A stretch of DNA of 64,000 nt from contig CAWAUM010000011.1 in the NCBI GenBank assembly GCA_963785235.1, forward strand, positions 233,724-297,723, given 5' to 3'. A program made the translations under genes and the position numbers. Numbering within the stretch: the stretch's first letter is position 1; each line of letters starts with the position of its first letter. The notes under the pieces are model-generated. The model searched no databases, had not been told where the DNA came from, and was given only the letters and a program-made list of their open reading frames with translations. The DNA is from an uncultured delta proteobacterium (lineage in GTDB: Bacteria; Desulfobacterota; Desulfomonilia; UBA1062). Below, in pieces: positions 16,899-58,164 of the stretch.

Positions 16899-16906
16899 GG
16901 AGACGC

Positions 16907-31714: not shown

Positions 31715-32240
31715 AGATCGCAAGGTTCAGGGTATTCATCGCACTCTTTTTCGATATGATATCAACTAACTTAAAGGGATGGGGGAGTTCAGGCGTACTG
31801 AGGGTGAAAAGGTAATAAAGCCTCCCTCCCGGCATGAGGAGCTTCAAACAGACATCTTCCAAGGTGCTCAGTGGTGAAAATGACCTTGCGAGTACGGCAT
31901 CGAATTGCCCGACTTCATCATGGAAAGGGTCATGTGGGAGGATTTCCACATCAGATAGGTTAAGCAATTCGATTGTATGCTGCAAGAAGGTGCATTTTTT
32001 GACGCTCCGCTCAATCAGGCAGATATGCGAGTCAGGATGGAGGATTTTGTAAGGGATTGCAGGCAATCCTGATCCTGAGCCAAGATCGGCAAGAACAGGC
32101 TCTTCTATTTGCATTAGCAGGGGCAGCATTACTTCAAGCTCATCTTCAATACCTGTAAGCATAGAAGGCCCCATCAGGTGGAGCTTGCCGTTATAACGCC
32201 TCAGCTCCCGGATCCATGTTTTTAGCCTCTCGTCCATCAT
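31698..32240 (-). CDS. rsmG: 16S rRNA (guanine527-N7)-methyltransferase RsmG (GidB)
   Basis: 180 aa. SAM motif LADLGSGSGLPAIP. Follows mnmE with a 4-nt overlap. Confidence 0.85.
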   Translation of the reverse strand: MMDERLKTWIRELRRYNGKLHLMGPSMLTGIEDELEVMLPLLMQIEEPVLADLGSGSGLPAIPYKILHPDSHICLIERSVKKCTFLQHTIELLNLSDVEILPHDPFHDEVGQFDAVLARSFSPLSTLEDVCLKLLMPGGRLYYLFTLSTPELPHPFKLVDIISKKSAMNTLNLAIFNRLA

Positions 32241-34284: not shown

Positions 34285-34293
34285 TCTTCTCTC

Positions 34294-41822: not shown

Positions 41823-43437
41823 CTACTGGGCCAGGATAATCGGTTCAAGCAGGATAACCAGCTCTGCGGTCTCAACGCTTTTTATCTGCTGGCTGAAGAG
41901 GTATCCAATACCGGGGATACTGCCCAGTATGGGTATACTCGTATTTTCCTGTTTCAGATTCTTGCTGATAAGCCCACCTAAGGCAATAATGTTTCCGCTT
42001 TTAACACGGATCTGGGTGGTGGCCTCTTCAAGCTGCACTGTGGGCAGCGTATAGACATTACCGCTGATGTCGCGTTCTTCAAGCTTCACTATCCGGCTCT
42101 TGATGGGGGTGATGCTCAGGTTTATCGAACCGGTATCCAGGTCGATATTGGGCACGACACCCAGCATGATGCCATCGAAGATAGAACCCACGGTCACCTC
42201 TGGTGTAGTGATTGTCGGGCCACCTTCTGTGGAAGTGGTTGTGAGCTTGATCTCCTGGATATATGAGGTGTTCGTGCCCACACTGATCAGCGCCGGCTGT
42301 CCGTTGGTCACCCTTATCCGGGGATTCGAGAGGACCTTTATGTCTCCGAATTCCTGCAGGGCGTTCATGGCTGCATTAAAGCCGTGAACGTCCGATTGTG
42401 CCTGGATCACCAGGGCAGGGGTGAGGTTAGTCGTTGAGAGCGCAAGGTTCTGCTGGATCGGATTGAAGACGATATCATTGATACTGAGGTGGGTGCTGGT
42501 CCAATCGATGCCGTACTGGCTTTTATCCTTCAGCGCGACCTCAATGATCTTTGCCGTGATGAGGATCTGTGAATTATAATAGGCCTTGATGGTCTTGATG
42601 TAGGCATCGATACGATCTATGGCGTCTCTCCTGTCATTTACCTCAAGGAAACCCAAGGCCCTGTTGAGGGAATACGACCCATCGCGGGTCAGGGTTGACT
42701 TCACATGATCCTCGATCTGTGTGCAGATGTCGCTGGTTGCTACAGGGATGGTGTCCTTGATGGAAAATTCACCGCTCAGGCCGTTATCACTTGATCCGCC
42801 ACTTGATCCGCCACCTGAGCCGCCACTTGAGGAGCCCGAAGAAGAACTGCTTGTAGAGCTGCTGATAACATCTCCTCCCACAGACATGGTGGTCTGTTTC
42901 TGGGAAGACAGGAAATTAAGGTGATAGGTTCTTGAGTCAGTACCCTTTACAGACAGTGCGCGTCCGTCCACCTTATAGAAAATGTGCAGTGCAGATGCTA
43001 CGTTCTCCAGGGCCTCTTCCAGTGGCGTCCTGTTAAATGCAATGGATACGGGCGGTAGAATAATGGGACCTTTGGCTGTTTGTTTATCTTTGGCCGCATC
43101 AGCTGTTTCTTCGGATAGATCGGTGCCGGTGCCCGCCTTAAGGCGTGAGTCAACCACCAGGTCCAGTCCCGCCCTTTCCGCAACGGCTGCAAATACATCG
43201 GTGAAAGCGGCATTGCTTGCGTTAAGGGTTATGGTCTTGCCTTTCAATGGATTCAGCTTGGCCACCTTTGCTTTGGGCAAAAGACTCTAAAGGTTTTGCC
43301 GCCTCAAGAGGTGTTGCAGCTTCCTTTTCTTTTTCAATGGAGAAATCCTCTTTCTTCATCAATTTGTCTGTGGTGCATCCGGAAAGGAAGACGCAACAGA
43401 TAACCGTGAGTAGTGAATACCTAATAAACTTTAACAT
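41823..43437 (-). CDS. Secretin, MshL-like lipoprotein secretin of a type IV filament system (frame interrupted near 43275)
   Basis: C-terminal secretin domain (GNIIALGGLISKN..IPILGSIPGIGYLFS..ELVILLEPIIL). N0/N1-like region (RTYHLNFL). The upstream fragment 43222-43437 encodes MLKFIRYSLLTVICCVFLSG-C (lipobox) and runs into the secretin frame after a 1-nt shift. Confidence 0.8.
42788..42835. repeat. Four tandem 12-nt units inside the secretin gene encoding a Ser/Gly-rich linker
   Basis: cacttgatccgc, cacttgatccgc, cacctgagccgc, cacttgaggagc (42788-42835). On the reverse strand these encode part of SSTSSSSSGSSSGGSGGGSSGGSSD. Confidence 0.8.
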
Positions 43438-43870
43438 GAAGGGTCTCCCTGGTACCGTTTTTGTTAGTAGTGATCACCTGGTCCGGTCCAATGGATGATA
43501 TTTGAAAGCTTTGTGTCTTGTCGCCAAGGCGCATTTTCTTTCCATTGATGATACAATAGCTTTGAGAACCTGCCTCAACAATCATACTTACCCTGACCGG
43601 TTCTGCTTCGGCCTTAACAGGAGGGTTTCCATATAAGGCATCCAAAGGCATGGTCCACTCGTGGCGAAAGACATCCCGGATGTCTTTGGCTGCAAGATCG
43701 GAATCGTCTTTAAGGGTGAAGATGCTCAGTTTATCAACATAGGTGAGGAACTCAGGTTGCTCGAGAGTAATGTTTTTGTTTTCGCGAAAAACATATGGAA
43801 CTGCGATGCACAATATAAGCGCAATGAGGGGCAGCATAAAGATCAGGATGAGGTTTTTGTCCAACTTCAT
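43421..43870 (-). CDS. PilP/MshK/GspC-like pilus assembly protein
   Basis: 149 aa. N-terminal TM helix and a C-terminal beta-domain (VSMIVEAGSQSYCIINGKKMRLGDKTQSFQISSIGPDQVIT). Immediately upstream of, and overlapping, the secretin gene. Confidence 0.5.
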   Translation of the reverse strand: MKLDKNLILIFMLPLIALILCIAVPYVFRENKNITLEQPEFLTYVDKLSIFTLKDDSDLAAKDIRDVFRHEWTMPLDALYGNPPVKAEAEPVRVSMIVEAGSQSYCIINGKKMRLGDKTQSFQISSIGPDQVITTNKNGTRETLHVKVY

Positions 43871-44281
43871 TCAGTTCCCGCCCCCAAGCTTGAAGCCTTT
43901 CATGCTGACCGTGATACCTGATGAAGTGCTTGTAACAATTGCCTTTTCAAGAAAGAACATGTCTTGTGCATAGGTCGAGGCAACCTCGGAAAACAGTTTT
44001 TTTACATCGTGGTCCGTCAGGGTGATTTCATAGTCCACGTTGATACCCCGTTCATGGGAAAGGGTGATCAGTTTGGCGCTGTATGCCTTGATGGACTCGA
44101 TCTTTTTTACATATTGTTTACGCTGCTCACTGGTCGCCAGGATCGCTCCCAGCTTGGCCTGGTTGAAGGTTATCTCCCTTGCTGCATGTACGTAATAGGC
44201 AAAGCCGGATATAACCAGCACGGCGCTGATGATGCCCATTATCAGGGCGAGGCGATAATACCTCATGGTTTTATCTCGCAA
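43871..44281 (-). CDS. PilO/MshJ-like pilus assembly protein
   Basis: 136 aa. Single TM helix, a coiled-coil segment and a small C-terminal domain. Abuts the previous gene with no gap. Confidence 0.45.
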   Translation of the reverse strand: MRDKTMRYYRLALIMGIISAVLVISGFAYYVHAAREITFNQAKLGAILATSEQRKQYVKKIESIKAYSAKLITLSHERGINVDYEITLTDHDVKKLFSEVASTYAQDMFFLEKAIVTSTSSGITVSMKGFKLGGGN

Positions 44282-45699
44282 TTCAGGCTGAATTCAGCAA
44301 GCTGTTCCTTGTGGTTGTAAGCGGCCTTTGAGACGGGAAAGACCTCCTGCATGGTCATGATGAAAGATGAGAAGATCTCTTTGGATTTCGGGTAGGGAGA
44401 GTTGATGATGCCTTCTATTGCTATCCCGAATGAATTTGCATGAGATGTGCGATGAGCTTCTGCAGCGACAGGCATGGCCCTGCCCTTGGGAATGTCTTCC
44501 TGCAGGGAGGACCTGTTGACCTCGATCCTTGTAATGAAGACATTGGCCGGTACTCCCTGGGTTATGGTTTGTACAATTGATTGCAACTTGGGCTCAGCCT
44601 GGAAATCTTTATAGGTATCGACGATGGTGTTGATATTCGTCAGGTCAAGATTTTTGCTCAGGGATGTATAATCGTCTTCAAGCTCTTTGAGCTGCTTGGA
44701 GCTCTTATAAATTGCCGAATTGGTCCTCTTCTCCAAGGCCTCGGCCTTTGTGGTGTTGCTCCACCCCAATGCAAAAAACACAAAGGCCATCAGGATCATT
44801 ACCAATGATATGGCGCAAGAGATTTTTGCATATCCCACAATCCTTCTGGTCCGGTGCAGTTTTTCAGGGGTGAAGTCATAGCAGGGTTTCATGGCGGTTC
44901 CGAAGAGCACGATTGCAGCGGCGTCCGGATCTCCGGTTTCACTCAGGCTGAAAGGGACTGTATGGATGTTATGCTTTTCGAGATCGGATATATTGATCTC
45001 TCCTTGTCCTATATAGTAGATCTTCTGGACCTTTTCCTGGTTGGAGCTCTGCAGCATGGAGGTCATTTCCCGAATGCCGGAAACCGTATCGGCCTGGGCA
45101 TCGAAGGACTCGGCATAGTTAACGGTTATGAGGTAATAGATGATCCCGGATTTTGCGCCGATGATCCGGATGAAACGGGTGTCTTCATAGACGATGATCA
45201 CCATGTTTTTGTCAATGGAACCCACTGCCGAGGCGATGGATGACTCGATGGGGCAGAACATGTCCACAAGGGCCTCATCCTCGTCAATGAGATCGGTCCT
45301 GGTCAGTTCATTTGAAGGGATGGCCAGGTAGGAATACCTGCCCTTGAGGTTGTCTATATCCTGAATCTTGGCAAAGGCGACATGGTAAGTGTCCTTGAAG
45401 AGACCGAGTTTATCAATGGTAGATCGGATATGGGCTGTTGTGGCCTCCTTGCTGATACGGGAAAACTCACCCACATCCGAGTAGATGCCTCTGGATGAGA
45501 AGCATATGGACATGCCGGGCGCCTTGCGCGAGATGTCTGTCAATGAAGTGGAATCGACCTTCTTCATGTCTTTAAGGACGATCTTCTGTCCGGCGCCGGA
45601 ATAGGATGCAATGCAATGCTCCTCTTCGCCCAGGATAACGGCAATGCCCTTTTTCGGCCCCATTTTCATCGAGATAAATTTAGTCAATATGTCATTCAT
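44263..45699 (-). CDS. MshI-like (PilM-PilN fusion-type) pilus assembly protein
   Basis: 478 aa. A roughly 290-aa cytoplasmic domain, one TM helix (ISCAISLVMILMAFVFFALGW), then a roughly 150-aa periplasmic PilN-like part. The size and the I-J-K-L gene order match MSHA clusters. I could not identify ATP-binding motifs. Confidence 0.45.
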   Translation of the reverse strand: MNDILTKFISMKMGPKKGIAVILGEEEHCIASYSGAGQKIVLKDMKKVDSTSLTDISRKAPGMSICFSSRGIYSDVGEFSRISKEATTAHIRSTIDKLGLFKDTYHVAFAKIQDIDNLKGRYSYLAIPSNELTRTDLIDEDEALVDMFCPIESSIASAVGSIDKNMVIIVYEDTRFIRIIGAKSGIIYYLITVNYAESFDAQADTVSGIREMTSMLQSSNQEKVQKIYYIGQGEINISDLEKHNIHTVPFSLSETGDPDAAAIVLFGTAMKPCYDFTPEKLHRTRRIVGYAKISCAISLVMILMAFVFFALGWSNTTKAEALEKRTNSAIYKSSKQLKELEDDYTSLSKNLDLTNINTIVDTYKDFQAEPKLQSIVQTITQGVPANVFITRIEVNRSSLQEDIPKGRAMPVAAEAHRTSHANSFGIAIEGIINSPYPKSKEIFSSFIMTMQEVFPVSKAAYNHKEQLAEFSLNCEIKP

Positions 45700-45773
45700 A
45701 TTTGTGAGTGTAGAGGATAAACCTCTCCACTTACTATGTTCTCGGAATTACGATTTGGTTTCTTTAGGATATT

Positions 45774-46442
45774 TTAAGGGAGTAATCCATGGAGATACGT
45801 GAGGCTCACAGTCTCGAGGATATCATCATAATTTGAGTTTATTAATGCAGAAGGAGAGGCGAATTGGTTATTATCACTGTTCGTGATACGCCCATCTCCG
45901 GTGTCGTCATTGGGAGTGTCTGCCCGCAGGTTTTCTCCCCCGGAAAGAACGACAAAGGCCACCTTCATGTTTCCATTGTCACAGAAGAGATCCGGAGCTG
46001 TTGTTCCATTGATAAGCTGACCGATTGTTGTTTTAAGCGTGGCGGGCGTAGTTGAGGTCAGATGTGATTCAACGGAATAAAAGAGGGTGGTCTGATAAGG
46101 GTCCTTGCCATTGATGCCGAGCGTTACCCAGGGCAGATAGCCATTTAGTCTGTTAGTAGTTTCAGCCCCATTGATGTTAGCGCTGGCAAACGGCAACCTT
46201 CCTGTGGCCAGGGCATACCCGATGATGGCGGTCCTGACTTCTTTGACAAACATCCGGTCATCCTTCAACTTGTTCTGCTTGATCAGCATGGGGAGGAGTT
46301 GTGCGCCAAGTCCCACAAGGATGCCGACTATCACGAGCACAAAGGCCATCTCGATGAGGGTAAACCCCTTTCGTGAAAAAGGCTTGCTCAGGCAGCAGCC
46401 TCTCCTTGTCATAAGGTCATTGTTCACCCTAGCCACCCCCAA
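45774..46442 (-). CDS. Prepilin-type (pseudo)pilin
   Basis: Class III signal KG/FTLIEMAFVLVIVGILVG with Glu at +5. The likely true start is the ATG at 46412 (MTRRGCCLSKPFSRKG-FTLIE). Confidence 0.75.
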   Translation of the reverse strand: MGVARVNNDLMTRRGCCLSKPFSRKGFTLIEMAFVLVIVGILVGLGAQLLPMLIKQNKLKDDRMFVKEVRTAIIGYALATGRLPFASANINGAETTNRLNGYLPWVTLGINGKDPYQTTLFYSVESHLTSTTPATLKTTIGQLINGTTAPDLFCDNGNMKVAFVVLSGGENLRADTPNDDTGDGRITNSDNNQFASPSALINSNYDDILETVSLTYLHGLLP

Positions 46443-47643
46443 GCTTGGACATGAGGTCGTAAACCGGACCGATAAGGGAAATGACGATGAAGACGAAGAT
46501 GCCGCCCGTTATGACTATGGCAATGGGCTCAATCATCTTGCCCAAGATGTCTACAAAACGCGATGTCTTCAATTCGTAGGTATCTGCAAGATATTTCAGC
46601 CTCTGATCCAGGGTACCGGTCTTCTCGCCCACGCTGACCATCTTCAACGTGATGGCATCAAAGAATTTCGTTACAGTGAAGGCCGTCAGCAACGAATTGC
46701 CCATGTTGGTTTCATTACGTATACGTATGATGACCGAGCGGATGAGGTCGTTGTGAAAGACCTTTTCAAGGATATCAAGCGCTTTTGTAAGTGTCACGCC
46801 GGACTGAAGCATGAGGGACATATTCGAGAATACCAGGGTAAGGGTTGAGCATTTCAGCAGATCGCCCACCACGGGAAGACTGAAGGCAACACGGCTCAGC
46901 ATCAATCGTGTTCTAGGAATTTTTCCCAGAATGACAAACCCTATGGTAATCAATCCGAGTGCAATGGGGTATAGCAACCAGTTATCTTTGGAGAATTGGA
47001 CGAAATTGACAAGGCTCAACGTGATATTGGGGAGCTGGACATTGATCTCCTTGAAGGTTGAAACAAGGCGGGGCAGCACGAAAAAGAGCCAGAAGATGAT
47101 GACGCACAGCATGGCAGCCACCACGAAGCCCGGATAGATCAGCGCCCTCTTCACCTGGGAAACAATACTGTCCACCTTTTTTAAATAATTCGCGGTATTG
47201 TCCAGGGCTGTTTGAATGGTACCGGTCTCTTCTCCGATATGGCAGAAAAATATGAGCATCTCGGGAAACACCTCGGGCCGGCGTGAAAATGCCCCTGATA
47301 AAGACTCTCCCTGGGCAATGCCCCCGATGACCTCATCGATTGCATCTCGCAGGCGTTTTACCCTGATGGTTTCCTTGATGCTTTCCATGGATTCCAGTAG
47401 GGGCAGGCCGCTGCCGAGCATGGAGGCAAGGGATTCACAGAATTCCGCTATCTCGATCTTCTTAACTGCCGGCTGGGTAAGGGTCTTGATGGTTTCAATT
47501 ATCTGATACCTCTGTTCGCTGTAACGGATAAGCGTCATTTCCTGAGAGGAAAGGTTCTCCATCAGATCCCGGATGCCCTCGAAATCGCCCTTGGAGGCAA
47601 AGATTGTTCCGTCTTTCTTCAGGGCATTGTACGAAAGGATCAT
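46429..47643 (-). CDS. Type IV filament platform protein (GspF/PilC/MshG family)
   Basis: 404 aa with two T2SSF repeats and three TM segments. ATGA-type overlap with the ATPase gene. Confidence 0.85.
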   Translation of the reverse strand: MILSYNALKKDGTIFASKGDFEGIRDLMENLSSQEMTLIRYSEQRYQIIETIKTLTQPAVKKIEIAEFCESLASMLGSGLPLLESMESIKETIRVKRLRDAIDEVIGGIAQGESLSGAFSRRPEVFPEMLIFFCHIGEETGTIQTALDNTANYLKKVDSIVSQVKRALIYPGFVVAAMLCVIIFWLFFVLPRLVSTFKEINVQLPNITLSLVNFVQFSKDNWLLYPIALGLITIGFVILGKIPRTRLMLSRVAFSLPVVGDLLKCSTLTLVFSNMSLMLQSGVTLTKALDILEKVFHNDLIRSVIIRIRNETNMGNSLLTAFTVTKFFDAITLKMVSVGEKTGTLDQRLKYLADTYELKTSRFVDILGKMIEPIAIVITGGIFVFIVISLIGPVYDLMSKLGGG

Positions 47644-49277
47644 TACCGCAAAACCCTCCAGATCTCTGCGAAGCTTGTCGTACCGTTAAGTATCTTGCGG
47701 ATGCCGTCACCCCGGAGCGTTACCATGCCTTCTTCCACAGCCTTGTCTTTGATCTCGAAGGGGTGTGACCCCACAGAGATGAGGCGCTCGATCTCTTTGG
47801 ATATAACCAGGATTTCCGCCACCATGATCCGGCCCAGGTAGCCGGTCTTTATGCACCTGGGGCATCCTACCGGGGCATACAGGGTTGTCCCTTTCTGGAT
47901 GCCGAATACACGGTGCTCTTCGTCGCCTGAATCATATGGCTGCTTGCAGCTCGGACAGAGTGCCCGGACGAGCCGCTGCGCTATGACGCAGATGAGTGAT
48001 GATGATATCATATAGTCCCTCATGCCAAGGTCTTTGAGCCTGGGTACGGCTCCGGAGGCATCGTTGGCATGCACCGTGGAAAGGACAAGGTGCCCTGTCT
48101 GCGCAGCGCGGAGCGCCATGGTCGCCGTATCGCCGTCCCGTATCTCACCGATAAGGATGACATCAGGGTCCTGCCGTAAAAAGGCCCTGACCGCGCTTGA
48201 GAAGATATACCCGGACTTCTCGTTAACCTGGGTCTGGCGGATCAGCGGGAACTGGTACTCAATGGGGTCTTCAACGGTCACGATATTTTTTTCAATGGAG
48301 CTGATCTCCCGCAAGGCCGCATATAAGGTTGTAGTTTTTCCTGACCCTGTGGGGCCGGAGACTAAGACCATGCCGTAGGGCTTGTGCAGAAGATCCCTGA
48401 GCTGGGTAATATCATCAGGATCCAGGCCAAGGCTCCGGATGTTATACAACTCCTCCGAGGAAGCCAGGATGCGCATGACCATGTTTTCCCCATTGGTAAC
48501 CTTTAAGGTAGAGACACGGATGTCATAGTGCTCATTTAAAAAATCAAAGGAGAGCCTTCCATCCTGGGGTTTGCGCTGTTCCGAGATGTCCATCTCGGCC
48601 TTTACCTTGATGCTGGAGATAACCCTGGAGTGCACCTCGATGGGAAAGGAGTAAAACGGGTAGAGTATGCCGTCGATGCGGTAGTGGATCTGTGTTGTCT
48701 TGTTCGTGGGGGTTACGTGGATGTCCGTTGCACGGGAGTTGATGGCGGACATGATCAGCAGCCTCACCAGTTTTTCTGTATCCACGTCGTGCGGATTATA
48801 CTTGGAATGTTCGAGCTGCTGCTCGATCTCTTCTTCTATGGGGTGTTCCAGGAGGTAATAGTCTTTTTCAATGTGCTTCTGTATCTGCGATGGCGATGCA
48901 GCCACAAACCGGATGCGTTTTTTCGAGATGCGTGAGGCAAGGTCTGACAGTTTCGTATTATCCGGTTCGCTCGTGGCTATGGTCAAGGTAGTGTCCTCGA
49001 CACTTATGGGAAGCAGGGAGTTCTCGCGTGCAAATTGCACGGGTAAAGCAGAGAGCGCTTCTTTCTGTGGTGAGAAATGACGCAGCTCTACAAACTCGAT
49101 GCTGAACTGTTTTGCAATGGACTGGGCAAGTTCCGTCTGGGTGACAAGGCCAAGACGGATCAGGATATCGCCGACCCGTTCCTTGGTGGCACGCTGTTCT
49201 ATAAGGGCAAGGCCGATTTCCTTATCGCTGATGATCCCTTCATCTTTGAGAAGATCACCAATGCGTTTTTTCTCCAT
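47643..49277 (-). CDS. Type IV filament extension ATPase (GspE/PilB/MshE family) with N-terminal MshEN c-di-GMP-binding domain
   Basis: 544 aa. Walker A GPTGSGKTTT, Asp box DPDVILIGEIRD, His box TGHLVLSTVHAND, and a tetra-Cys CPSC...CPRC motif. N-terminal tandem 24-residue RxGxx(L/I)...Q motifs separated by 5 residues. Confidence 0.9.
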   Translation of the reverse strand: MEKKRIGDLLKDEGIISDKEIGLALIEQRATKERVGDILIRLGLVTQTELAQSIAKQFSIEFVELRHFSPQKEALSALPVQFARENSLLPISVEDTTLTIATSEPDNTKLSDLASRISKKRIRFVAASPSQIQKHIEKDYYLLEHPIEEEIEQQLEHSKYNPHDVDTEKLVRLLIMSAINSRATDIHVTPTNKTTQIHYRIDGILYPFYSFPIEVHSRVISSIKVKAEMDISEQRKPQDGRLSFDFLNEHYDIRVSTLKVTNGENMVMRILASSEELYNIRSLGLDPDDITQLRDLLHKPYGMVLVSGPTGSGKTTTLYAALREISSIEKNIVTVEDPIEYQFPLIRQTQVNEKSGYIFSSAVRAFLRQDPDVILIGEIRDGDTATMALRAAQTGHLVLSTVHANDASGAVPRLKDLGMRDYMISSSLICVIAQRLVRALCPSCKQPYDSGDEEHRVFGIQKGTTLYAPVGCPRCIKTGYLGRIMVAEILVISKEIERLISVGSHPFEIKDKAVEEGMVTLRGDGIRKILNGTTSFAEIWRVLR

Positions 49278-49466
49278 AAGACCCGTTCCCGCTCCTTAAG
49301 CAGTGCAAATTGAGAAATCACTCAAAGATATGTCCCTGCAAGAATCTCCTGTTGGAGAGTAGCCTTTCGGGTTTGTCTTCCACCTTCCTATCACGAGTGG
49401 GTGCATGATGTGTCATGCCCCAAACAACGCACGTGTGGGCCGGAAGACACCATCCTCGTGATACGG

Positions 49467-50060
49467 CTACATTCTCCAGTAGACAGTCTTAACCGTTGTT
49501 GCCGTATAAACAGTGTTGGCCCTCATGGTCCCTGTGTTGTAAACCGCGTCATCATATTTTCTGTCCATTTCCTGGGCAACCTCATAGGGGATCTGGGTGT
49601 ACACGATACAGTTCGCGTTCAGCGGTGTTGCAGACCCTGGGGGAGTAGCCAAATACTGGATGTAGGCCTGGCCTCCAAAGGGGTTTGTAGGGTAATCGTT
49701 AGCCGCTCCGGTATAGCCCCCGTTGATGATCTGTGCCAAGACGAGGTCCTGGAAGAGAACAGAGCGCTCGGTATTCGCATTGATCTGGCCGTTTCCTGCA
49801 GTCGCAGCAGGATCTGTATGGCCCTGTGTCGGGATATTAGCTACAGGTGCATCACCCGGATAATAGTTATACCTGTCATAATAGGTATAGAAGGCCGCGG
49901 TGAGTGAATCCTTCTGGTTGACTAACTTCTTGACCTTTGCATTCTGAATGAGGGCCTCGCCCTTGAGTACGCCTGTAATGAGCAAGCCGATGATCACCAA
50001 CACCAGTGCAAGTTCAACAAGGGTAAAGCCGCCTTTTTGTCGATTTCTAAACCGTTCCAT
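49467..50060 (-). CDS. Prepilin-type major pilin candidate
   Basis: 197 aa. MERFRNRQKG/FTLVELALVLVIIGLLITG (short leader, Glu+5). It is its own transcription-unit-like gene, followed by a long hairpin and a 189-nt gap before the ATPase gene. Confidence 0.8.
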   Translation of the reverse strand: MERFRNRQKGGFTLVELALVLVIIGLLITGVLKGEALIQNAKVKKLVNQKDSLTAAFYTYYDRYNYYPGDAPVANIPTQGHTDPAATAGNGQINANTERSVLFQDLVLAQIINGGYTGAANDYPTNPFGGQAYIQYLATPPGSATPLNANCIVYTQIPYEVAQEMDRKYDDAVYNTGTMRANTVYTATTVKTVYWRM

Positions 50061-50180
50061 GCATACACCTCCTGATAGAGTAGCGCCTAGCTGTAAGCTC
50101 TAGTAAGCACCCAATCGGTATAATCCACATTCTTCTTTAGTAATTGCTCGATATGGCTTGAATTATGGAAAGGGAAGAGC

Positions 50181-52331
50181 TTATTCTTTATGCGTAATGA
50201 TTCGTCTCCCAAGTGTCAGGGGGGATATGCCCGGTATAGTGGAGATGTCCTTGTTATATACAGCTCCTGTTGAAGATATGAATTTCATGACACCATTGTC
50301 CAGATCAATGGAAGGACCAAAAGCGCTGCCCATAAACATGGCCTCTGACTTTGTTTGCCTTCCAGTGAGGGAATCATACTCTTGAAACATGGATATGCCG
50401 GTGTCAATACCTCCGCAGGGAGAATCTTCTTTCCAGGTGCTTAAGAATAACCTGTTATCCATGATTGTCATGCCTGAGGGTGAGCCTCCTTCAAGGGAGA
50501 CAGACCAAACGATATTCTCTTTGGTATAGCATTCAAGGCGTTTATTACTTGCCACGATGAGGTGAAGCTCCTTTCGCCAATGGAACGGACGTATCTCCAT
50601 AATGGGATTATTGGCGGTGGTGTTTATGATGCCCAAGAGTTCGAGCCTGTTGTTAAAAAGATAGACAAGTCCGTCGGATGTCCCTGCAAAAACCCCAGCT
50701 GTGCACGGATCATAGCGCACGACATTAATGGTATGATTAACTTCGAATTGAGCCGTCCCTATGCCGTTTCCAAGATTGTACGCATATATCGTGGAGCCGT
50801 TACTGATATAGGCCATGGATTCGGATGCGTCGATAAAAGACCCTTTATGCTGCCAGATTATCTGAGGTCCCTGGCCTATACACGAAATGATGCCCAGTCT
50901 GTTCGGGCCTGTTATGACCCGTTCGCCTCTCAGTCGCACCTCGCCCCCTATACCTGTCATGAGCCACGTCAGGCTGCCTTCGGGCATGGTGACATTGAGG
51001 AGCTGATCGCGGGATGTAGTGCAGTACAGGTCTGTCTGTGTGGCTGCAAGGTCATGGGCAAGGCCATTCAGGGAATAACCCGGGCAGGATACCAGGCTTA
51101 AAGGACTGACGACACTCGGTCTGTAAAACCGGCATTTGTCGGTTTTGAGCCATGGCGGATCGAGCCGTGCACGGAGGTTTTTCAGTATCATGTCCTGGTC
51201 GTTACGAACCACTATAGGCTGGGTAACCAGCATCTGTTCAGGAACGAGTATCTCCCGTGCCGGCATATACTGACCCCCGCCCTTTATAGCAACACTTCTC
51301 AGATACGCCGTATCAGGGCCGATAATGTGGACATTGATGCCCAGAGACTTCGCATAGGATGAGACATCATCAAGGCAGTGAGAGCCTTCCCCTTCAAAGG
51401 CAGCATCTTTGGCGTTTCCATCATGATCAAAGTCCTTCAGCCAGGAGGGGAGATGGCCGTCGTTTATGGGAACACCTGCAGTAACCAGAATGATATGTTT
51501 GCCGGATACACACTGCGAAGGGAACAGGGTTGTTGCATTATAAAGTGCCTCCGATAAAGGGGCTGAGCCCGATGCCGGATGAACGCCGTCAAGGCCCTGA
51601 AGGATCTGCTGCCATTCAATGGTAAAAGTTTGGATCAGGCCTTGTGACGTGCTCATAAGGGACACTTCACACAGATCCAGTGATTCAAAGAGCGACTTTG
51701 CGTAGGAGAAGGACTTTGTCCACACTGACATTGCACCTGTCAGGCTGCCGAGTGCCGGGGCCCTTTGATATGAGTTGCCCCAGCTTCCCTTGAAATAGGT
51801 GCCCTCAGCGTTCGTGTAGGTGTCTTCAAACTCACAGATATCACTGATGTGGGTTATGCCGCCTGTGGCCCATTTTGAGTAGAGCGCATCGTCTAAGAAA
51901 TCTTGGCCGGATGATGTAATCGTGCTTAATGAATCATCGATGATAATTATGATATGTGGTCTCTGGGCAATCCGGGTGGTGCCTTGTGGGATATCCGCAC
52001 TCTGTTCCCTTAGTGCCACACACCAGGAATATGACTGCATGGCGCTGGTTGCATGTTCGGTGAGCCTGGTGGAAAAACATATATGGTCCCACCCTTCAGG
52101 CGCCACAAGCAGTTTATGGGTTGCGGATGGCATAGTCCCGTTTTGGGGAGCAAAGAGCTGATCTTTAATAATACGATAGAAGGCGTTGCTCGATTTCATA
52201 TGGTACAAGGTTATGGAAGCGGACGCCATGGTAAGCCCCAGGATCACGGTAAGGAGTAGGAGTACAAAGGCAAGGATAAAACCTTGCTCATTGGATGGGG
52301 GATGATAAAGAGAGTTCCTTCTCTGTTCCAT
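50181..52331 (-). CDS. PilY1-like candidate tip adhesin: PilX_N-type anchor + vWA domain + beta-propeller
   Basis: 716 aa. N-terminus EQGFILAFVLLLLTVILGL (PilX_N-like hydrophobic helix). vWA beta-1 with DxSxS (HIIIIIDDSLS), HIILVTAG, INVHIIGP. The C-terminal roughly 300 aa holds PQQ-like propeller repeats (STIYAYNLGNG, GLVYLFNN). Confidence 0.6.
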   Translation of the reverse strand: MEQRRNSLYHPPSNEQGFILAFVLLLLTVILGLTMASASITLYHMKSSNAFYRIIKDQLFAPQNGTMPSATHKLLVAPEGWDHICFSTRLTEHATSAMQSYSWCVALREQSADIPQGTTRIAQRPHIIIIIDDSLSTITSSGQDFLDDALYSKWATGGITHISDICEFEDTYTNAEGTYFKGSWGNSYQRAPALGSLTGAMSVWTKSFSYAKSLFESLDLCEVSLMSTSQGLIQTFTIEWQQILQGLDGVHPASGSAPLSEALYNATTLFPSQCVSGKHIILVTAGVPINDGHLPSWLKDFDHDGNAKDAAFEGEGSHCLDDVSSYAKSLGINVHIIGPDTAYLRSVAIKGGGQYMPAREILVPEQMLVTQPIVVRNDQDMILKNLRARLDPPWLKTDKCRFYRPSVVSPLSLVSCPGYSLNGLAHDLAATQTDLYCTTSRDQLLNVTMPEGSLTWLMTGIGGEVRLRGERVITGPNRLGIISCIGQGPQIIWQHKGSFIDASESMAYISNGSTIYAYNLGNGIGTAQFEVNHTINVVRYDPCTAGVFAGTSDGLVYLFNNRLELLGIINTTANNPIMEIRPFHWRKELHLIVASNKRLECYTKENIVWSVSLEGGSPSGMTIMDNRLFLSTWKEDSPCGGIDTGISMFQEYDSLTGRQTKSEAMFMGSAFGPSIDLDNGVMKFISSTGAVYNKDISTIPGISPLTLGRRIITHKE

Positions 52332-52980
52332 GGTATCTTGACCTCATGCGAATTGTCAGATCATTGCCTGAAATCGTTGGATGAAAGAGGACTACTGCCT
52401 CTGCAAGCAGTTGGTTGTTCCGGTAGAGGCCGTCTCCCTTCAGTTCATAGTGGATAGCCGGGACCGCCCTGTTGCCTTGTACAGGCATTATGGCGCATGT
52501 CAGAGGGAGGGTTTTTTTATCCAGGCCCCGTGAATAGTTGTGGCCTACAACACAGGGGCCGTTCTCGGTTATTATTCCAAGGTCGGCCCAGAAGTCTGCG
52601 CGGCCGTCATTGTCGATATCTACGGTATCGAGTATTGCAACCCTTTCAGCTGAGGAATTGATGAGTGCATAGTAAGGTGCCGGATTGGTCAAGGATATGC
52701 TGATACCGGGATTTTCAGATGTGACAGGCACCCCTGCAATAAAAAGCTGGCTGCCTTCAATCGCAATCTTAAGGTCCTGCGGGAGCAATAATGCACACTG
52801 AACGAGATCTGCATTCAGCTGGATAGAGGCCTGGCGGAGCGACTGCATGCAATACCATGCCTCTCTCATTTCTTTATGCGTAACAGCCGAAACCTGGTAG
52901 AATTGATAGAGAGCGAGAAAAAGTATTGATGAGCATGCAAGCGCTATAAGCAACTCCACCATGCCCACACCTCTTTCCAT
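52288..52980 (-). CDS. Minor pilin, PilW-like prepilin-type protein
   Basis: 230 aa. MERG/VGMVELLIALACSSILFLAL (Glu+5). First gene of the cluster, overlapping the next gene by 44 nt. Confidence 0.65.
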   Translation of the reverse strand: MERGVGMVELLIALACSSILFLALYQFYQVSAVTHKEMREAWYCMQSLRQASIQLNADLVQCALLLPQDLKIAIEGSQLFIAGVPVTSENPGISISLTNPAPYYALINSSAERVAILDTVDIDNDGRADFWADLGIITENGPCVVGHNYSRGLDKKTLPLTCAIMPVQGNRAVPAIHYELKGDGLYRNNQLLAEAVVLFHPTISGNDLTIRMRSRYHGTEKELSLSSPIQ

Positions 52981-53200
52981 TGTATGCCCCTTCCACTATA
53001 AAATATACTTATATGAAAGGAGGGATAATTCTTGGGAATAGAGATTAAACAAGAGAGAGCAGCAAGCTCAACAACAATACAATAAATACAGTTTAATATA
53101 ATACTATGAACCCGGTGCTTGTCAAGGGATGAAAGTACGCCTTAGGAAAATGACAATGGACAACCTTAAGAGATATTGATAATAATCGCACCAAAACAAG

Positions 53201-54855
53201 ATGGAGCGCATGCAGAGCAGGGGAAATATACTTATCGCGGTTATTGTGGTGATCGCCATTGCCATGACCCTGTTCCTGATTGTACCCCTTGGCGGTAAGG
53301 TGGGGCAGCTCAGGGAAGCCACCATCTCGTTCATCTTCCGGAAGCCCCCGCAGTTCACCTCCATGGAGGTCGATGTGGAGGGGGCCCGCAAGGTGGTAAG
53401 AGCGGGTGAGTCACTCAAGATCAAGGGTGGTGAGACCATCATCATCACCAAGGTCCATGCAAATACGTTCTTCGATTCATACCTGTCTGCTGATGTTGTA
53501 GGCTTCAGTAAACCAAACGACATGAATGAACCCATCGATACGGTGGAGATCCGCAATCAGCTCATAGCCGCCGGCATCAAATCGGTCCCCATTGATATTT
53601 TCTACCTCGACCGGAAGATCGCCAAGGTCCCCCTTGAGTTGGATCTGAATGAGCAGGACTTTATCAATCAGATAAGATCAGCCAAGAGTGATGAGGAAAA
53701 GATCTCCCTTTTGCGCTCCGCACATGCAACATTTCCGAAGAATATGTCCTTTCTGGATGAGCTTGATAAGCTCTTGAGTGCTAAAGAAGATTACCAGGCA
53801 CTGGTGGGGATCTATAAGGGGGTTGTGGAAGCCGATCCTGCGAATTTGGCGGCATACTTGAATCTCTCAGCATATTACATAAAGCTGAAGAACTACGATG
53901 AGGCCCTTGCCATGTGCCGGAAAATTATCGATGCGGGCAAGGCGGATGCGGTCATTTACCGCCGCATGGCCTATATCGCAGGCGAAAAGGGTGATCTTGA
54001 AAACCGTGTTGTATACCTGAAAAAGGCCCTTGAACTTGATAAACAAAACGAAGCCGTGGTTGTCGACCTGGCCAAGACCTATGAACAGGCAGGCATGAAA
54101 CAGCAGGCCCTTGATGTGTACCAGTCTGCTTCGGATATTGCCAAGGACAGGGATATCCTTATCCCTCTGATTCAAAATGCGATGAAAAAAGAAGATTATA
54201 AAAAGGCGCTCGATCTTCTGAAGCGCTACATTCAGCGCTACCCCAATGATAAGAATGCCACTTGCTCAGCTTGCCATGGTCATGGGCAAGCTGGGTGATA
54301 CAAAGGCGCAGGTTATATATTACCAGAAGGCGGCTGAACTTTCGCCTTCAGACAGCGTGATCTGGTATAACCTCGGTGTTGCCCGCGAAAAACTCGGCGA
54401 TAACAAGGGCGCCCTTGACGCCTATGACAAAGGTGCTCCAGATGAAGCAGGCAGATATGGATTCCATGCAGGCTGCGGCAGGCCTGTCTTTGAAACTGGG
54501 CCAGTACAAGGATGCATACGCGTATTATTCATCCCTGGCGAAAAAGACATCCAAGAAGGAACACCTTAAGGGACTTGTGAGCGCCGCTGTCGGATTGAAG
54601 GACCAGGACAAGGTTATCGAGGCCGGTACCTTGTTCCTCAAGAACAACAAGGACCATGACGTGGCCATGGCACTCGGGTATGCCTATGAGTCCAGGGCTT
54701 CTACACGTGAGCCCCGGGCAAAGCTGGATGACCTGAATAAGGCCTTGGAGGCATATCAGACAGCCCGTAAGGTCAATCCCGCATCCAGGATTGCAGGCGA
54801 GAAGATACCCGAGCTTAAGATTGAGATCCTTAAGCTCAGGAAGGCAAGGCAGTAA
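53201..54855 (+). CDS. Membrane-anchored TPR-repeat protein (two frame interruptions near 54255 and 54430)
   Basis: N-terminal TM helix (ILIAVIVVIAIAMTLFLIV), a roughly 130-aa unknown domain, then many TPR units continuing through track ORFs 53201-54298, 54246-54569 and 54376-54855. Divergent from the pilus cluster, in a position analogous to MshN/PilF-type TPR proteins. Confidence 0.65.
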
Positions 54856-55577: not shown

Positions 55578-56237
55578 ATGTCCAAGGATTATTACCGGAT
55601 TCTGGAAATATCCAAGGATGCAACGTCTTTAGAGATCAAGAAGACCTACCGCAGGCTCGCCCTTCAATATCACCCTGATCGTAACCCCGATAGACCCGGC
55701 CTATAGAGCATTTCAAGGAGATCACCGAGGCATACGGGGTGCTTATCGACCCGGACAAGCGGCGGAAATATGACATGCAGCGTGAGATTCTCCTTCAACC
55801 GGGAGACGGTGTTCGAAGATATCTTATCCAAATCAGAGTTCCGGGACGTCTTCGATGATCTGCCCATACGAAAAGAATGGATTGACCGCATATTGAACGT
55901 GAGCAAGGTCTTTGCCTATGAGGCCTTTGTGGTGGGAGGCACGCCCAGTGCAATCCTGAGGCGGTCCATGGTGCGCCTGGCATCGCAGGGATTGAACAGG
56001 ATGTTCCATGCAGTCATGGACATGCACGAAAAGGTTGCCATCCCTTCAAGCATTGCCGTGCTCGGGGGATACATAACCCTGGAGTACAGGCCGGGCTTTG
56101 TGAAACACAAGATCCGTGTGAAAATACCCAGGAACACGCAGCAAGGCACAATGCTCAGGGTCCTGGGGATGGGCAGGTCAAGCCCGTCAAGAAAGGCAGG
56201 GGACCTCTATTTGCAGGTGGACATCGAATCGTTGTAA
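55578..56237 (+). CDS. J-domain (DnaJ/CbpA-like) protein (two frame interruptions near 55700 and 55790)
   Basis: ATG at 55578. [38 protein letters not shown], then [21 protein letters not shown] in a second frame. The C-terminal fragment (track ORF 55770-56237) ends [10 protein letters not shown], like the DnaJ C-terminal domain. Confidence 0.7.
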
Positions 56238-57151
56238 ATGACGATCTGGTTCTTGCCGTGCGTCTTGCCCCAGTACATGGCCGCATCCGCCATTTTGATG
56301 ACCTCGTGCGGATCGCTGGAATCCTTCGGCAGGCTGGAAAGGCCTATGGTGACGCTGACCTCAAGCGTTGATTCAACCGTGCTGCAGATACGCTCTGACA
56401 CCACCACGGCCTCTTCAATGGAGGTTTCGGGGAAGAGGATAATGAACTCCTCGCCGCCATAACGGGCAAGGATGTCGCAGTTTCTCGTGTTATGCTTGAA
56501 CACATGGGACAGGCGCACGAGCATTTCGTTGCCCTATTCATGCCCTTTGGCGTCGTTGTACTTCTTGAAATCGTCGATATCGATCATGGCCAGAGACATT
56601 GTCCTGTTGTACCGCAGGTGTCTCGAAACCTCGTTCTTGAGTACGCTCATGAGGTGCCGGAAATTGTACATGCCCGTGAGTTCGTCGGTGCGGGAGAGGT
56701 TCCGGTAGTAGTCAGCCAGTTCGGCCTCCTCTTTGAGCCTGACCTCTTCGAGGATCCTTTGGATGGTGAGGTGGAGGTGGTCGAGCAGAATCGGTTTGGT
56801 AATAAAATCCGAGGCGCCGAGCTTCATGCATTCCACTGCATCACGAATGGTGCCGTACCCGGTAATCATGACAGCCTGGATATCGGACCTGATCTTTTTG
56901 ATGGATTTCAATAACTCCGAACCTGTCATGCCCGGCAGGTGAAGATCCACAATGGCTATATGAAAGAGGTCTTTCTGGACGAATGCAATTGCCTGCTCCC
57001 CACTCATGGCGGTTGTTACATCAAAATCGTGCCCTAAAAGATACTCTTCAATAAGATCAAGGGTCTCCTGTTCATCATCCACAATCAGGACCCGAGTTGT
57101 TTTCTTCACAAGCGTGGCACCCATCGTATCAGCCGTTCTCCTTGTCCTCAC
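56207..57151 (-). CDS. Response regulator-diguanylate cyclase (REC-GGDEF) with an in-frame TAG at 56534-56536
   Basis: REC domain (IAIVDLHLPGMTG). GGDEF domain split as ...YNDAKGHE-TAG-GNEMLVRLSHV...RYGGEEFIILF. Both halves are in the same frame (track ORFs 56534-57151 and 56207-56524). Confidence 0.8.
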
Positions 57152-57348
57152 ATAATAATTCCATGAAGAGAACTTACAACTATCTTCATACTAACGGATA
57201 ATTGTCTACAATTCATGAGAGTTATTTTCGTTTACCGTCAGGGGGTGCTAGTATTAGCGAAATAATTTCAAGTAGGTGTCTCATGAGCTTTTATGTATAA
57301 CAGAATTCCCTCTAAAGATATTTTAAAAAAAGTCCGTTAAAGGGTGGG

Positions 57349-58156
57349 ATGCAACAGGCTTGTCTTATCAAGAAGATTGAACAGCATATTGAGAGTATTC
57401 CGACGCTTGAGTCCAGCCGGATGAGGCTCTTTAATGTGCTCCAGGAGGAAGAATCCTCCATAGAGGGTATTGAGCAGGTAATATCCAGTGATCCTGCCCT
57501 TGTAGCCAAAGTGATCAAGCTGGCGAATTCGTCGTTCTACCGTCATGCCGACAGGCATGTGGGAATCCAGCAGGCATTACGCACCATCGGTCTTGACATG
57601 GTGAAATGCATCGCATTGTCCATGGCCGTGATGGAGACCTTCGGCACCCAGACCCCTTCAATGAAGCAGCTCTGGAGGCATTCCTATGCAGTGGCTTATA
57701 TATCAGGACTGCTCGGGAATTCCAAAGCCGAGAAGGAGTGTCTCTTCACCGGGGGGCTTCTCCATGATATCGGCAGGATGATACTGATCTGCAGAGACAC
57801 CTGAACACTATCTTCCCCTTTGCGAATTCACCGGTAGCTGGCCCGATCTGGCATTAGAGCGCGATGTTTTCTCCATGGACCACACAATAATCGGCGAAAT
57901 GATCGCGAAGCGCTGGCATTTTCCGCCGGAAGTCATAGCGCTGATAAGGTATCATCATGAACCAATGAGCCGAGCAACCGCCCTTGTTTATCTGACGGAT
58001 CAGGTCGTCATGCAGCATGAGAGGGGTTTGATCACAGAAGATTTTGAGCAGGAGGTCGGAATCAGAAACCATCTTGGTGATGAGTATAAAGATCTTGTAA
58101 ATACTATTAGACAAAGGTATAGAACGAACACGGTTATATTTGAAAATTTGGGGTAA
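57349..58156 (+). CDS. HDOD-domain signalling protein (frame interrupted near 57800)
   Basis: IESIPTLESSRMRLFNVLQEE..IEQVISSDPALVAKVIKLANSSFY, then GGLLHDIGRM. Continues as EHYLPLCEF..DHTIIGEMIAKRWHFP in a second frame. Confidence 0.75.
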
Positions 58157-58164
58157 GGGGCATT

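Follow-up and report, generated by a model that had tools for sequence, protein, structure and literature searches.

The 64-kb stretch of DNA analysed here (the window) carries on its minus strand, at 41823-52980, a ten-gene cluster that we read, with a probability of roughly 0.7, as encoding a complete, envelope-spanning type IV filament (TFF) machine of the MSHA-like kind, most likely an adhesive pilus controlled by c-di-GMP. That the genes are expressed and form a pilus, that it adheres and that c-di-GMP is bound are predictions from sequence. The cluster encodes a known machine in a lineage-specific variant and no new kind of system, the conclusion that the original prediction had also reached. 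It is self-contained and, as had been proposed, stands as a second pilus cluster beside a separate pilM-N-O-P(-Q) set at 522-3254 of the same window.

All ten ORFs, here called genes A to J in order of transcription, were found in the ORF list of the window as the original prediction had placed them, with the secretin gene last and ending at 41823. They are real genes; all ten are strictly collinear and intact in 28 species-level genomes assigned to the Desulfomonilia or 'Deltaproteobacteria', with protein identities of 26-93%. The genes had been described as overlapping or abutting throughout, which holds for most neighbours and gives the cluster the layout of an operon; the exceptions are three gaps, of 120 and 189 nt flanking the 197-aa pilin gene (gene C) and of 74 nt before the 478-aa gene (gene G). 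The orthologous loci come from syntrophic or anaerobic MAGs of Desulfomonilia type, among them Phox-21 and bins from peat and digesters. The flanks are syntenic as well, the whole neighbourhood being conserved across the class with housekeeping genes on both sides, and an origin as a mobile island was rejected for this reason. By this sequence comparison, the locus is inherited vertically and is a core feature of Desulfomonilia-type anaerobes.

Upstream of gene A, at a distance of approximately 120 nt, lies a sigma-70-like promoter candidate (53098-53125, minus strand; TTGACA-16-TATTAT), and its consensus match, at 11 of 12 positions, suggests that it may function as a promoter. The 189-nt spacer after gene C differs in length among loci and has a modestly stable fold (z = -2.3) that is not a canonical terminator. 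Scanning the window and the pilin-proximal region with Rfam revealed neither a c-di-GMP riboswitch nor any other RNA family, and a search for sigma-54 promoters upstream of gene C returned chance-level matches, none of them properly placed. The 64-kb window contains no prepilin peptidase (A24), no retraction ATPase and no second ATPase paralogue; the first two had already been reported as missing.

Pfam and NCBIfam searches of the ten proteins recovered T2SSE plus MshEN, T2SSF, Secretin and three N_methyl prepilins. Nothing above threshold was found in either database for the 716-, 478-, 136- and 149-aa proteins (B, G, H and I), in agreement with the earlier description of diverged components. 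Gene D (47643-49277, minus strand; 544 aa) encodes an extension ATPase (T2SSE, 420 bits) with an N-terminal MshEN domain (67 bits; NF053729, 47.8 bits against a cut-off of 38). Its two 24-residue c-di-GMP motifs (R5-Q28 and R34-Q57, with a 5-residue spacer) agree with the published definition of the double motif (PMC5013675) and are kept, spacer included, in 23 of 23 orthologues with occasional conservative substitutions. This conserved MshE-type motif bears out the earlier call of a GspE/MshE ATPase, and an MshE-type ATPase with MshEN, a mandatory feature of MSH, is thereby present. MshEN is not exclusive to MSH, since PilB, PilF and a part of the GspE proteins have the domain as well. Among solved structures, PilF and PilB are the closest and align over the full length, whereas GspE aligns over the catalytic part only; by profile, the protein is about equidistant from PilB (495 bits, cut-off 676) and GspE (485 bits, cut-off 630), and lies under both cut-offs. 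Gene E (46429-47643, minus strand; 404 aa) encodes the inner-membrane platform protein of the GspF/PilC/MshG family, with two T2SSF repeats (161 bits) and NCBIfam scores of 235 bits for GspF and 194 bits for PilC, each under its equivalog cut-off. The T2SSF match, like the N_methyl matches of the pilins, is generic and not MSH-specific.

For the secretin, encoded by gene J (41823-43437, minus strand), MshL (TIGR02519) is the best NCBIfam model by 90 bits, with 245.0 bits over the full model, 5 bits under the cut-off of 250.2. The other models lie much further below theirs, namely the type IVb pilus (T4bP) secretin PilN (TIGR02520; 155 bits, cut-off 287.65), GspD (104 bits, cut-off 351) and PilQ (99 bits, cut-off 284). 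The Pfam Secretin domain scored 114.7 bits, and the best solved relative is BfpB, a lipoprotein secretin, which is distant (62.6 bits). The gene is intact (525-546 aa) and its lipobox conserved in 21 orthologues. These results uphold the identification of an MshL-like lipoprotein secretin.

Three proteins encoded between the platform and the secretin would make up the alignment complex. Structure prediction was run on G and B. For gene G (44263-45699, minus strand; 478 aa), the predicted structure is that of a PilM-PilN fusion with MshI/GspL architecture, comprising a cytoplasmic actin-like domain (residues ~16-270), a membrane and coiled-coil helix (279-350) and a periplasmic ferredoxin-like domain (387-476); PilM is a better structural match than GspL. 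The model agrees with the earlier reading of this protein as an MshI-like PilM/N fusion. Gene H (43871-44281, minus strand; 136 aa, or 131 aa from its likely start, M6 at 44266) encodes a small bitopic protein in which a TM helix is combined with a coiled coil and a beta-alpha-beta-beta unit. The product of gene I (43421-43870, minus strand; 149 aa), also bitopic, has a TM helix at the N-terminus and a conserved beta domain of ~55 aa at the C-terminus, connected by a variable linker. Profiles built from the orthologue alignments of G, H and I found no meaningful match among PDB sequences. Protein H matched nothing in Pfam, NCBIfam or PDB sequences, and each of its orthologues was likewise without a match in Pfam; its profile was never significant in hhalign comparisons with the window's own PilN and PilO or with G. 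Searched against 1.84 billion protein representatives, the same profile detected only 14 relatives, none bridging to an annotated family and none outside the Desulfomonilia-type clade, and it brought up remote sister clusters. In the C-terminal domain of I, 14 of 26 orthologues match Pfam T2SSB (GspB) below threshold (best E 0.013), and an hhalign comparison with the window's PilP aligned the same C-terminal motif without reaching significance. We propose that H is a PilO/GspM/MshJ analogue, as judged from position, size and topology only, and that I may act as a PilP/GspC-HR/GspB/MshK analogue. The PilO/MshJ and PilP/MshK assignments made earlier stay tentative, going by topology and position, and neither gained a significant profile, PDB or hhalign match.

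Prepilins with G-1 and E+5 are encoded by three genes (A, C and F). Gene A (52288-52980, minus strand; 230 aa) encodes a minor pilin of the PilW/GspJ/MshO type with a class III signal (MERG↓VGMVE, E at +5), an N_methyl match (E 8e-4) and a weak match to the GspJ N-terminus; G-1 and E+5 are kept in 19 orthologues, each of 228 aa. Gene C (49467-50060, minus strand; 197 aa) encodes a prepilin with a leader of ~11 aa (G↓FTLVELALVLVIIGLL; N_methyl, 26.7 bits in Pfam), and the first ~40 mature residues are near-invariant in 21 orthologues. It is alone in the cluster in being bordered by non-coding DNA at either end, and its ribosome-binding site, AGGAGG, is a strong one. We regard gene C as the best candidate for the major pilin gene. 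Gene F (45774-46442, minus strand; 222 aa as annotated, with the true start probably at 46427 or 46412) encodes a prepilin with a long leader (...SRKG↓FTLIEMAFVLVIVG; N_methyl, 25.7 bits in Pfam; TIGR02532, 27.7 bits in NCBIfam), whose G↓FTLIE site is kept in 26 orthologues while the leader varies. The product is probably a minor pilin, and the position of its gene matches that of mshF, after mshG, in Vibrio.

Gene B (50181-52331, minus strand; 716 aa) encodes a putative tip adhesin that is pilin-like but lacks E5, its prepilin-like N-terminus reading G↓F/W-V/I-L-A; this N-terminus could instead be a Sec signal-anchor. In the predicted structure, a long N-terminal helix accompanied by a small beta-sheet is followed by a vWA domain (~125-355) and a beta-propeller (~400-711). 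PilY1/PilC tip adhesins have this domain set, a vWA domain and then a C-terminal beta-propeller, and are likewise encoded beside PilW/PilX-type minor pilin genes. The protein had been called PilX_N-vWA-propeller: the predicted structure supports the pilin-like helix and the two other domains, whereas Pfam PilX_N gave no match. Modular type IV pilins with a vWA module exist, for example Streptococcus sanguinis PilB, and B resembles them in that a vWA module is grafted on a pilin-like N-terminal helix, such that the filament can carry an adhesin. Unlike these, B belongs to a diderm system, adds a beta-propeller and lacks E5, and its prepilin-like signal is putative.

Set against the MSHA (MSH) locus of Vibrio cholerae, the cluster shares the single-locus layout without a prepilin peptidase or retraction ATPase, the MshE-type ATPase with its N-terminal double c-di-GMP motif, a GspF-family platform gene followed by a small pilin-like gene (E-G-F order), and the I-J-K-L order of a fused PilM/N protein, two small bitopic proteins and a lipoprotein secretin matched best by MshL. 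It also has a PilW/MshO-like minor pilin gene followed by a gene for a large, non-pilin-sized protein, comparable to MshO/P-MshQ. MshQ, encoded after MshO/P, has been proposed as a PilY1 analogue (PMC12918778). MSH loci are single loci that lack a prepilin peptidase (PMC6668835); here, too, all components are contiguous. The blocks are permuted, being (O-like, Q-like, pilin)(E, G, F)(I, J, K, L) in this cluster and (I...N)(E, G, F)(B, A, C, D, O, P, Q) in Vibrio. The large protein, at 716 aa with a pilin-like N-terminus, vWA and propeller, differs from MshQ (~1200 aa), and the proteins in the I, J and K positions match no curated profile. There are four pilin-like genes, fewer than the mshA-D, O and P set of Vibrio.

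MshM, an AAA_22/ExeA-like ATPase, is encoded neither in the cluster, as had been noted, nor within ~10 kb on either side. The MSH model of Denise et al. (2019; PMC6668835) lists MshM as mandatory, along with MshL, MshE, MshG and an MshA-type pilin, and is satisfied by three of five mandatory genes, and the absence of MshM does not by itself exclude MSH membership for that reason. For MshN, the cluster offers only a neighbour with generic TPR matches (PilW, 39 bits against a cut-off of 154). This divergent membrane TPR protein (53201-54855, plus strand; 550 aa when intact) is present where it had been reported, in a frameshifted form that had been missed, with two 1-bp insertions (54261 and 54426); the gene is intact in L001 and 15 orthologues. 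It is a possible MshN/PilW-like accessory candidate, and adjacency does not tie it to the cluster because the whole neighbourhood is syntenic. In L030, a remote sister cluster, the order is E-G-[MshM/ExeA-like AAA ATPase]-I-J-K-[MshL-like secretin]-TPR, a gene content that links the I-J-K-L module to that of MSH-type loci. Counting against the MSHA-like reading are the lack of MshM, the MshL score 5 bits under its curated cut-off, the equal distance of the ATPase from PilB and GspE, and the lack of any significant similarity of H and I to PilO, PilP, GspM or GspC.

It is possible, though we think it unlikely, that the cluster represents a Desulfomonilia-restricted TFF subtype outside the MSH, T2SS and T4aP clades. 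Such a subtype would have a single pilin-anchored vWA-propeller protein in place of PilX (or MshP) and PilY1 (or MshQ), two small homologue-less proteins in place of PilO and PilP, and a pilin gene where related clusters have the MshM ATPase, and its filament might serve syntrophic cell-to-cell contact instead of simple attachment to surfaces.

The likeness to T4aP (PilMNOPQ with minor pilins and PilY1) lies in the overall architecture, in the ATPase nearest to PilB/PilF, in the cytoplasmic domain of G nearest to PilM, and in B, which has the vWA and beta-propeller set of PilY1 and follows a PilW-like gene (compare pilW-X-Y1). The differences are a PilM-PilN fusion, analogues of PilO and PilP that cannot be recognised as such, a single-locus arrangement, a lipoprotein secretin, and a PilX-like anchor and PilY1-like domains joined in one polypeptide; the PilQ and PilB scores both lie far under their equivalog cut-offs. 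Type IVb pili (the BfpB and R64 PilN family) share the lipoprotein secretin, with BfpB as the best solved structure and TIGR02520 as the second-best NCBIfam model. That score stays well below its cut-off, the pilins have F at +1, that of C has a short leader, and T4bP-specific assembly genes are missing from the cluster.

A divergent T2SS was named in the original prediction as the alternative that would overturn it. In such a system, a short periplasmic pseudopilus of C, F, A and B would push folded exoproteins through the secretin, with G, H and I in the roles of GspL, GspM and GspC/GspB, respectively. The fused GspL-like protein (actin-like cytoplasmic domain, TM helix, ferredoxin-like periplasmic domain) with its small GspM-sized partner, the GspB/GspC-HR-like beta domain protein encoded before the secretin, with the weak T2SSB matches of its orthologues, the E5-less GspK-like N-terminus of B, the missing retraction ATPase, and the NCBIfam results in which Gsp models match the platform protein and the N-termini of the pilins best are all compatible with such a system. 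The equivalog scores are not: GspG, with a cut-off of 88.85 bits, reaches only 22.5 and 27.2, and GspD and GspE also fall far short, whereas the secretin, an MshL/BfpB-type lipoprotein, scores 245 with MshL. The GspE structures align to the catalytic part of the ATPase only, its N-terminus being MshEN and not the GspL-binding N1 domain, and G is structurally closer to PilM. The conserved locus holds four pilin-like genes against the five of GspG-K and no candidate exoprotein gene, and the 716-aa vWA-propeller protein is foreign to T2SSs and a hallmark of adhesive pilus tips. We consider a T2SS improbable; the equivalog scores, together with the presence of a PilY1-like protein, led us to reject it.

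The MSHA-like machine had been described with a secretin encoded by a single ORF, which proved incorrect for the window, where a frameshift had been missed. Gene J is split by a 1-bp insertion (G at 43271) into an ORF at 43437-43222, with the signal peptide and lipobox (MLKFIRYSLLTVICCVFLSG↓C), and the body at 43280-41823 in another frame. The extra G was found by comparison with a 98.7%-identical contig, in which gene J is an intact 537-aa gene. Were the insertion real, the secretin body would be cut off from its lipoprotein signal peptide, and the strain would have no pore and no functional secretin, leaving an inactivated remnant. The frameshift does stand in the given sequence and is missing from the sister contig and all 21 orthologues. 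However, the window contains many further single-base indels (those of the TPR gene, and others in a class A PBP gene around 24227-24384), and the sister contig has indels of its own that garble the C-terminus of gene G; indels that break different genes in the two contigs form a pattern of long-read assembly error and not of decay. The other nine genes of the cluster are intact and 96-100% identical to the relative. The insertion at 43271 is most likely an assembly error, since gene J is intact in every relative, and a remnant is accordingly improbable. A programmed frameshift was rejected on the same observation.

Geobacter-type e-pilins are short, far smaller than the mature product of gene C (~186 aa). 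It is very unlikely that the pilus has a mainly non-adhesive role, in DNA uptake or in extracellular electron or partner contact during syntrophy: the lifestyle of the hosts and the MSHA-type and other pili of Desulfuromonas and Pelobacter, which have been discussed with regard to attachment or electron transfer (PMC7762298), would suit such a role, but the major pilin candidate is large, the conserved locus has no ComEA/ComEC-like competence or cytochrome genes, and a vWA-propeller tip protein is typical of adhesins.

For the MSHA-like adhesive pilus, we propose the following assembly. Binding of c-di-GMP to the MshEN domain of the hexameric ATPase D, whose motifs are evident in the sequence, would trigger extension by analogy with Vibrio MshE. 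D would act on the platform protein E, tethered to the membrane through the predicted actin-like domain of G, and the periplasmic ferredoxin-like domain of G may pair with H in the PilO/GspM role. Protein I would form a bridge to the secretin's N-terminal domains, as PilP, GspC or GspB do, and J would form the outer-membrane pore as a self-piloting MshL-type lipoprotein. The four putative class III signal peptides would be processed by a prepilin peptidase encoded elsewhere, presumably that of the T4aP system. C is likely the major subunit and A and F minor pilins, and B, with its E5-less pilin-like helix and PilY1 domain set, could sit at the tip as initiator and adhesin. A retraction ATPase is not among the products of the cluster.

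The general picture of how such machines work is unchanged. With this locus, the MSHA-like branch of TFFs gains a conserved and well-defined variant, in uncultured anaerobes with unstudied surface structures; the Desulfomonilia concerned include phosphite-oxidising and syntrophic lineages. Two of the four proteins that lacked an above-threshold Pfam or NCBIfam match now have folds assigned by prediction, G as a fusion of PilM and PilN and B as a putative PilY1-like adhesin with a pilin-type anchor. The design of B is relevant to the current question of how filament assembly is licensed by tip complexes, and the conserved MshEN motif predicts that attachment would be under c-di-GMP control in these Desulfomonilia hosts.

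All ten minus-strand open reading frames (orfs) of the original prediction, designated A to J, were found between 52980 and 41823, in an arrangement compatible with one or two translationally coupled transcription units. Gene A (52980–52288), encoding a PilW/GspJ-like minor pilin, shares 44 nt with B (52331–50181), and a candidate sigma70-like site with a good match (TTGACA-16-TATTAT) lies upstream of A at 53125–53098. The pilin gene C (50060–49467) is alone among the ten in being flanked on either side by non-coding DNA (120 nt and 189 nt). The ATPase gene D (49277–47643) overlaps the platform gene E (47643–46429) by 1 nt, the prepilin gene F (46442–45774) starts inside the end of E, and G (45699–44263) follows 74 nt past F. 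H (44281 or 44266 to 43871) overlaps the stop codon of G, I (43870–43421) begins immediately past the stop codon of H, and the secretin gene J starts at 43437, overlapping I by 17 nt. The 189-nt spacer between C and D (49278–49466) contains neither a canonical terminator nor an Rfam match; its folding is somewhat above that of shuffled controls (z = −2.3), and its length ranges from ~30 to 355 nt across the orthologous loci. In one of these loci (L007, MAG JAKPQL010000012), the orthologue of the candidate major pilin (L007:5681–6259) carries an in-frame stop in its conserved N-terminal helix (GEALI*NAKVK), so that this gene is either wrongly sequenced or a pseudogene.

The ten proteins were searched against Pfam and NCBIfam; as anticipated, four of them (B, G, H, and I) have no match above threshold. 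D matches T2SSE (420 bits) and MshEN (67 bits) and exceeds the cut-off of the NCBIfam model "c-di-GMP-binding domain, MshE-related" (47.8 vs. 38 bits). It is similarly distant from the PilB (495 bits) and GspE (485 bits) equivalogs, falling under both cut-offs; among solved structures, PilF and PilB align along the whole of D (421–388 bits), and GspE along the catalytic part only (about 350 bits). Its motif agrees with the c-di-GMP-binding motif defined for the MshEN domain (PMC5013675), and the key residues are kept in 23 D orthologues with few conservative changes; judging from its sequence, D probably binds c-di-GMP. A few kb off, beyond the divergent TPR gene (~55600–59300; L001:1–3077 in a near-identical metagenome contig), are genes for a response regulator-GGDEF protein, an HDOD-HD protein, and a GAF hybrid histidine kinase, and these c-di-GMP signaling genes could feed the MshEN ATPase. 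E matches T2SSF, and A, C, and F carry prepilin N-methylation motifs, with C the probable major pilin. None of the pilins comes near the GspG equivalog (22–27 bits, cut-off 88.85).

The secretin had been read as one orf, which does not hold in the window: its lipoprotein signal peptide (MLKFIRYSLLTVICCVFLSG|C) is encoded by an orf at 43437–43222, and the remainder is encoded from 43280 in another frame. In L001 (ERZ25039527 contig_72265), which is 98.7% identical to the window across 21.6 kb, the gene is intact (537 aa); in the window, an additional G at 43271 accounts for the split. Altogether, 12 single-base indels separate the window from L001. Those at 54261 and 54426 break the divergent TPR gene in the window, and two surplus bases in L001 (L001:14793 and L001:14934, corresponding to window 44486 and 44346) fall in gene G, placing its C-terminal ~58 residues out of frame (472 aa called); the 478 aa of the window agree with all other relatives. 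Indels thus break conserved genes in the window and others garble G in L001, a distribution that favors assembly error over gene decay. A class A PBP gene in the window contains a compensated double frameshift (24227–24384), whereby the transglycosylase and transpeptidase parts are in the same frame and the intervening stretch is open in another. These observations suggest an error-prone, perhaps long-read, assembly, and other orf calls in the window should therefore be treated with caution. The secretin body matches Pfam Secretin (115 bits) and the full MshL model TIGR02519 (245 bits, 5 below cut-off), compared to 155 bits for the T4bP PilN family, 104 for GspD, and 99 for PilQ. Its closest solved relative is BfpB, likewise a lipoprotein secretin.

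The AlphaFold2 model of G (24 homologues, pLDDT 81) comprises two RNase-H-like subdomains (~16–270), a very long helix that includes a membrane segment (279–350), and a beta-beta-alpha-beta-beta domain (387–476). This predicted layout, together with a consistent Foldseek result, identifies G as a PilM-PilN fusion, the architecture common to MshI and GspL, in agreement with its proposed MshI-like nature. A search of 5.8 billion proteins found only 37 relatives, each of them unannotated and encoded in a Desulfomonilia or "Deltaproteobacteria" MAG. H consists of a TM helix, a predicted coiled coil, and one beta-alpha-beta-beta unit; it gave nothing significant against Pfam, NCBIfam, PDB sequences, or the window's own PilN and PilO, and its profile retrieved only 14 proteins from 1.84 billion representatives. 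In I, a variable linker connects a TM helix to a conserved ~55-residue beta domain, which matches Pfam T2SSB (GspB) in 14 of 26 orthologues, each time below threshold; hhalign aligned the same motif to PilP, not significantly. The proposed assignments, PilO/MshJ-like for H and PilP/MshK-like for I, fit position, size, and topology, and they stand as tentative roles with no significant profile match for either protein.

B, a 716-aa protein, had been described as a PilX_N-vWA-propeller protein. Its model (pLDDT 87, pTM 0.82) contains an N-terminal helix (16–59), a small sheet, an alpha/beta domain (125–355), and a propeller (400–711), and its profile matches a PQQ-type propeller among PDB sequences (E 1e-4); the domain description thus stands except for PilX_N, for which Pfam gave no match. 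The N-terminus (G|F/W-V/I-L-A, no Glu at +5), kept in 20 orthologues, resembles those of GspK/PilX-type minor pilins; it may instead be a Sec signal-anchor. On the pilin-like reading, B is, in terms of its modeled domains, a PilY1-like protein with a pilin-like anchor, an unusual fusion encoded directly past A. This placement after a PilW-type minor pilin is analogous to that in pilW-X-Y1 and mshO-P-Q (discussed in PMC12918778), and B may be processed as a prepilin and placed at the tip.

With the G alignment as query, 185,579 species-representative genomes yielded 28 loci, all from Desulfomonilia or "Deltaproteobacteria" MAGs, including Phox-21, UBA6087, and SPRUCE peat bins. All ten genes are intact, in the same order and orientation, in each locus long enough to judge, with identities to the window of 70–93% for D (full-length matches), 55–80% for J, 37–72% for G, 33–67% for B, and 26–78% for H and I. 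The flanking housekeeping genes (PHP, LOG, P5CR, TPR protein, and metallophosphoesterase) are also syntenic; a mobile-island origin is thus rejected, and the shared gene order and flanks indicate that the pilus locus belongs to the core of the lineage and has been inherited vertically. The flanks compared reach to about the metallophosphoesterase gene, short of the c-di-GMP signaling genes. Since the entire neighborhood is syntenic, adjacency of the 550-aa TPR gene, whose product has generic TPR matches only, is uninformative on function. The window is origin-proximal chromosome, as it contains dnaA, yidC, jag, and mnmE (listed at 6123–7469 and 32237–35658 with the 522–3254 region). It also carries a canonical pilM-N-O-P set (522–3254), the pilQ of which presumably lies beyond the window start, and a PAS histidine kinase with a sigma54 response regulator (14583–18196). 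It encodes no prepilin peptidase or retraction ATPase (none of PilT, PilD, or a second ATPase), in line with the original description of the cluster.

The weakest H-profile matches came from four remote clusters (L030–L033) that retain a four-gene module: a fused PilM/N protein (434–468 aa), a 127–129-aa protein, a 138–148-aa protein, and a secretin. The small proteins are unannotated here as well. A ~265-aa gene follows the module in L030, L032, and L033, whose contigs are long enough, with TPR matches in L032 and L033. L030 (3307–13472) has the order pilin, pilin, MshEN-ATPase, platform, AAA_22 ATPase, MshI-, MshJ-, and MshK-type genes, and secretin; its AAA protein is ExeA/MshM-like (TIGR03015, 243 bits vs. 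a 324.5-bit cut-off), and MshL is the best model for its secretin (241 bits). In the window, prepilin F fills the slot of this ATPase; in L033, the upstream partners are a 1707-aa and a 176-aa protein instead. Through its content, L030 links the I-J-K-L module with genes of MSH type.

The PilN-family model score speaks against T4bP membership, the PilQ and PilB scores and the fused PilM/N speak against T4aP, and the GspG, GspD, and GspE equivalogs, which all score under cut-off, speak against T2SS, the placement that would have contradicted the original prediction. The cluster resembles MSH systems (PMC6668835) in its single locus lacking a prepilin peptidase, MshE-type ATPase, platform protein, MshL-like lipoprotein secretin, I-J-K-L order, and PilW-like gene followed by a large protein. 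It differs in that three gene blocks are permuted, MshM is absent, MshN is not demonstrable, pilins are few, and the MshI-, MshJ-, and MshK-type proteins are beyond profile recognition. In the MSH model of Denise et al., MshM is mandatory, yet three of five mandatory genes suffice. There are earlier reports of MSHA-type clusters from other Desulfobacterota (PMC7762298). The predicted MSHA-like type IV filament operon is therefore largely upheld, while the roles of H and I and formal membership of the MSH clade are better regarded as plausible. Taken together, the operon most likely makes an adhesive pilus that is under c-di-GMP control and has a vWA-propeller protein at its tip; the machine is a lineage-specific variant and not of a new kind, and its overall logic is familiar despite the unrecognized parts.
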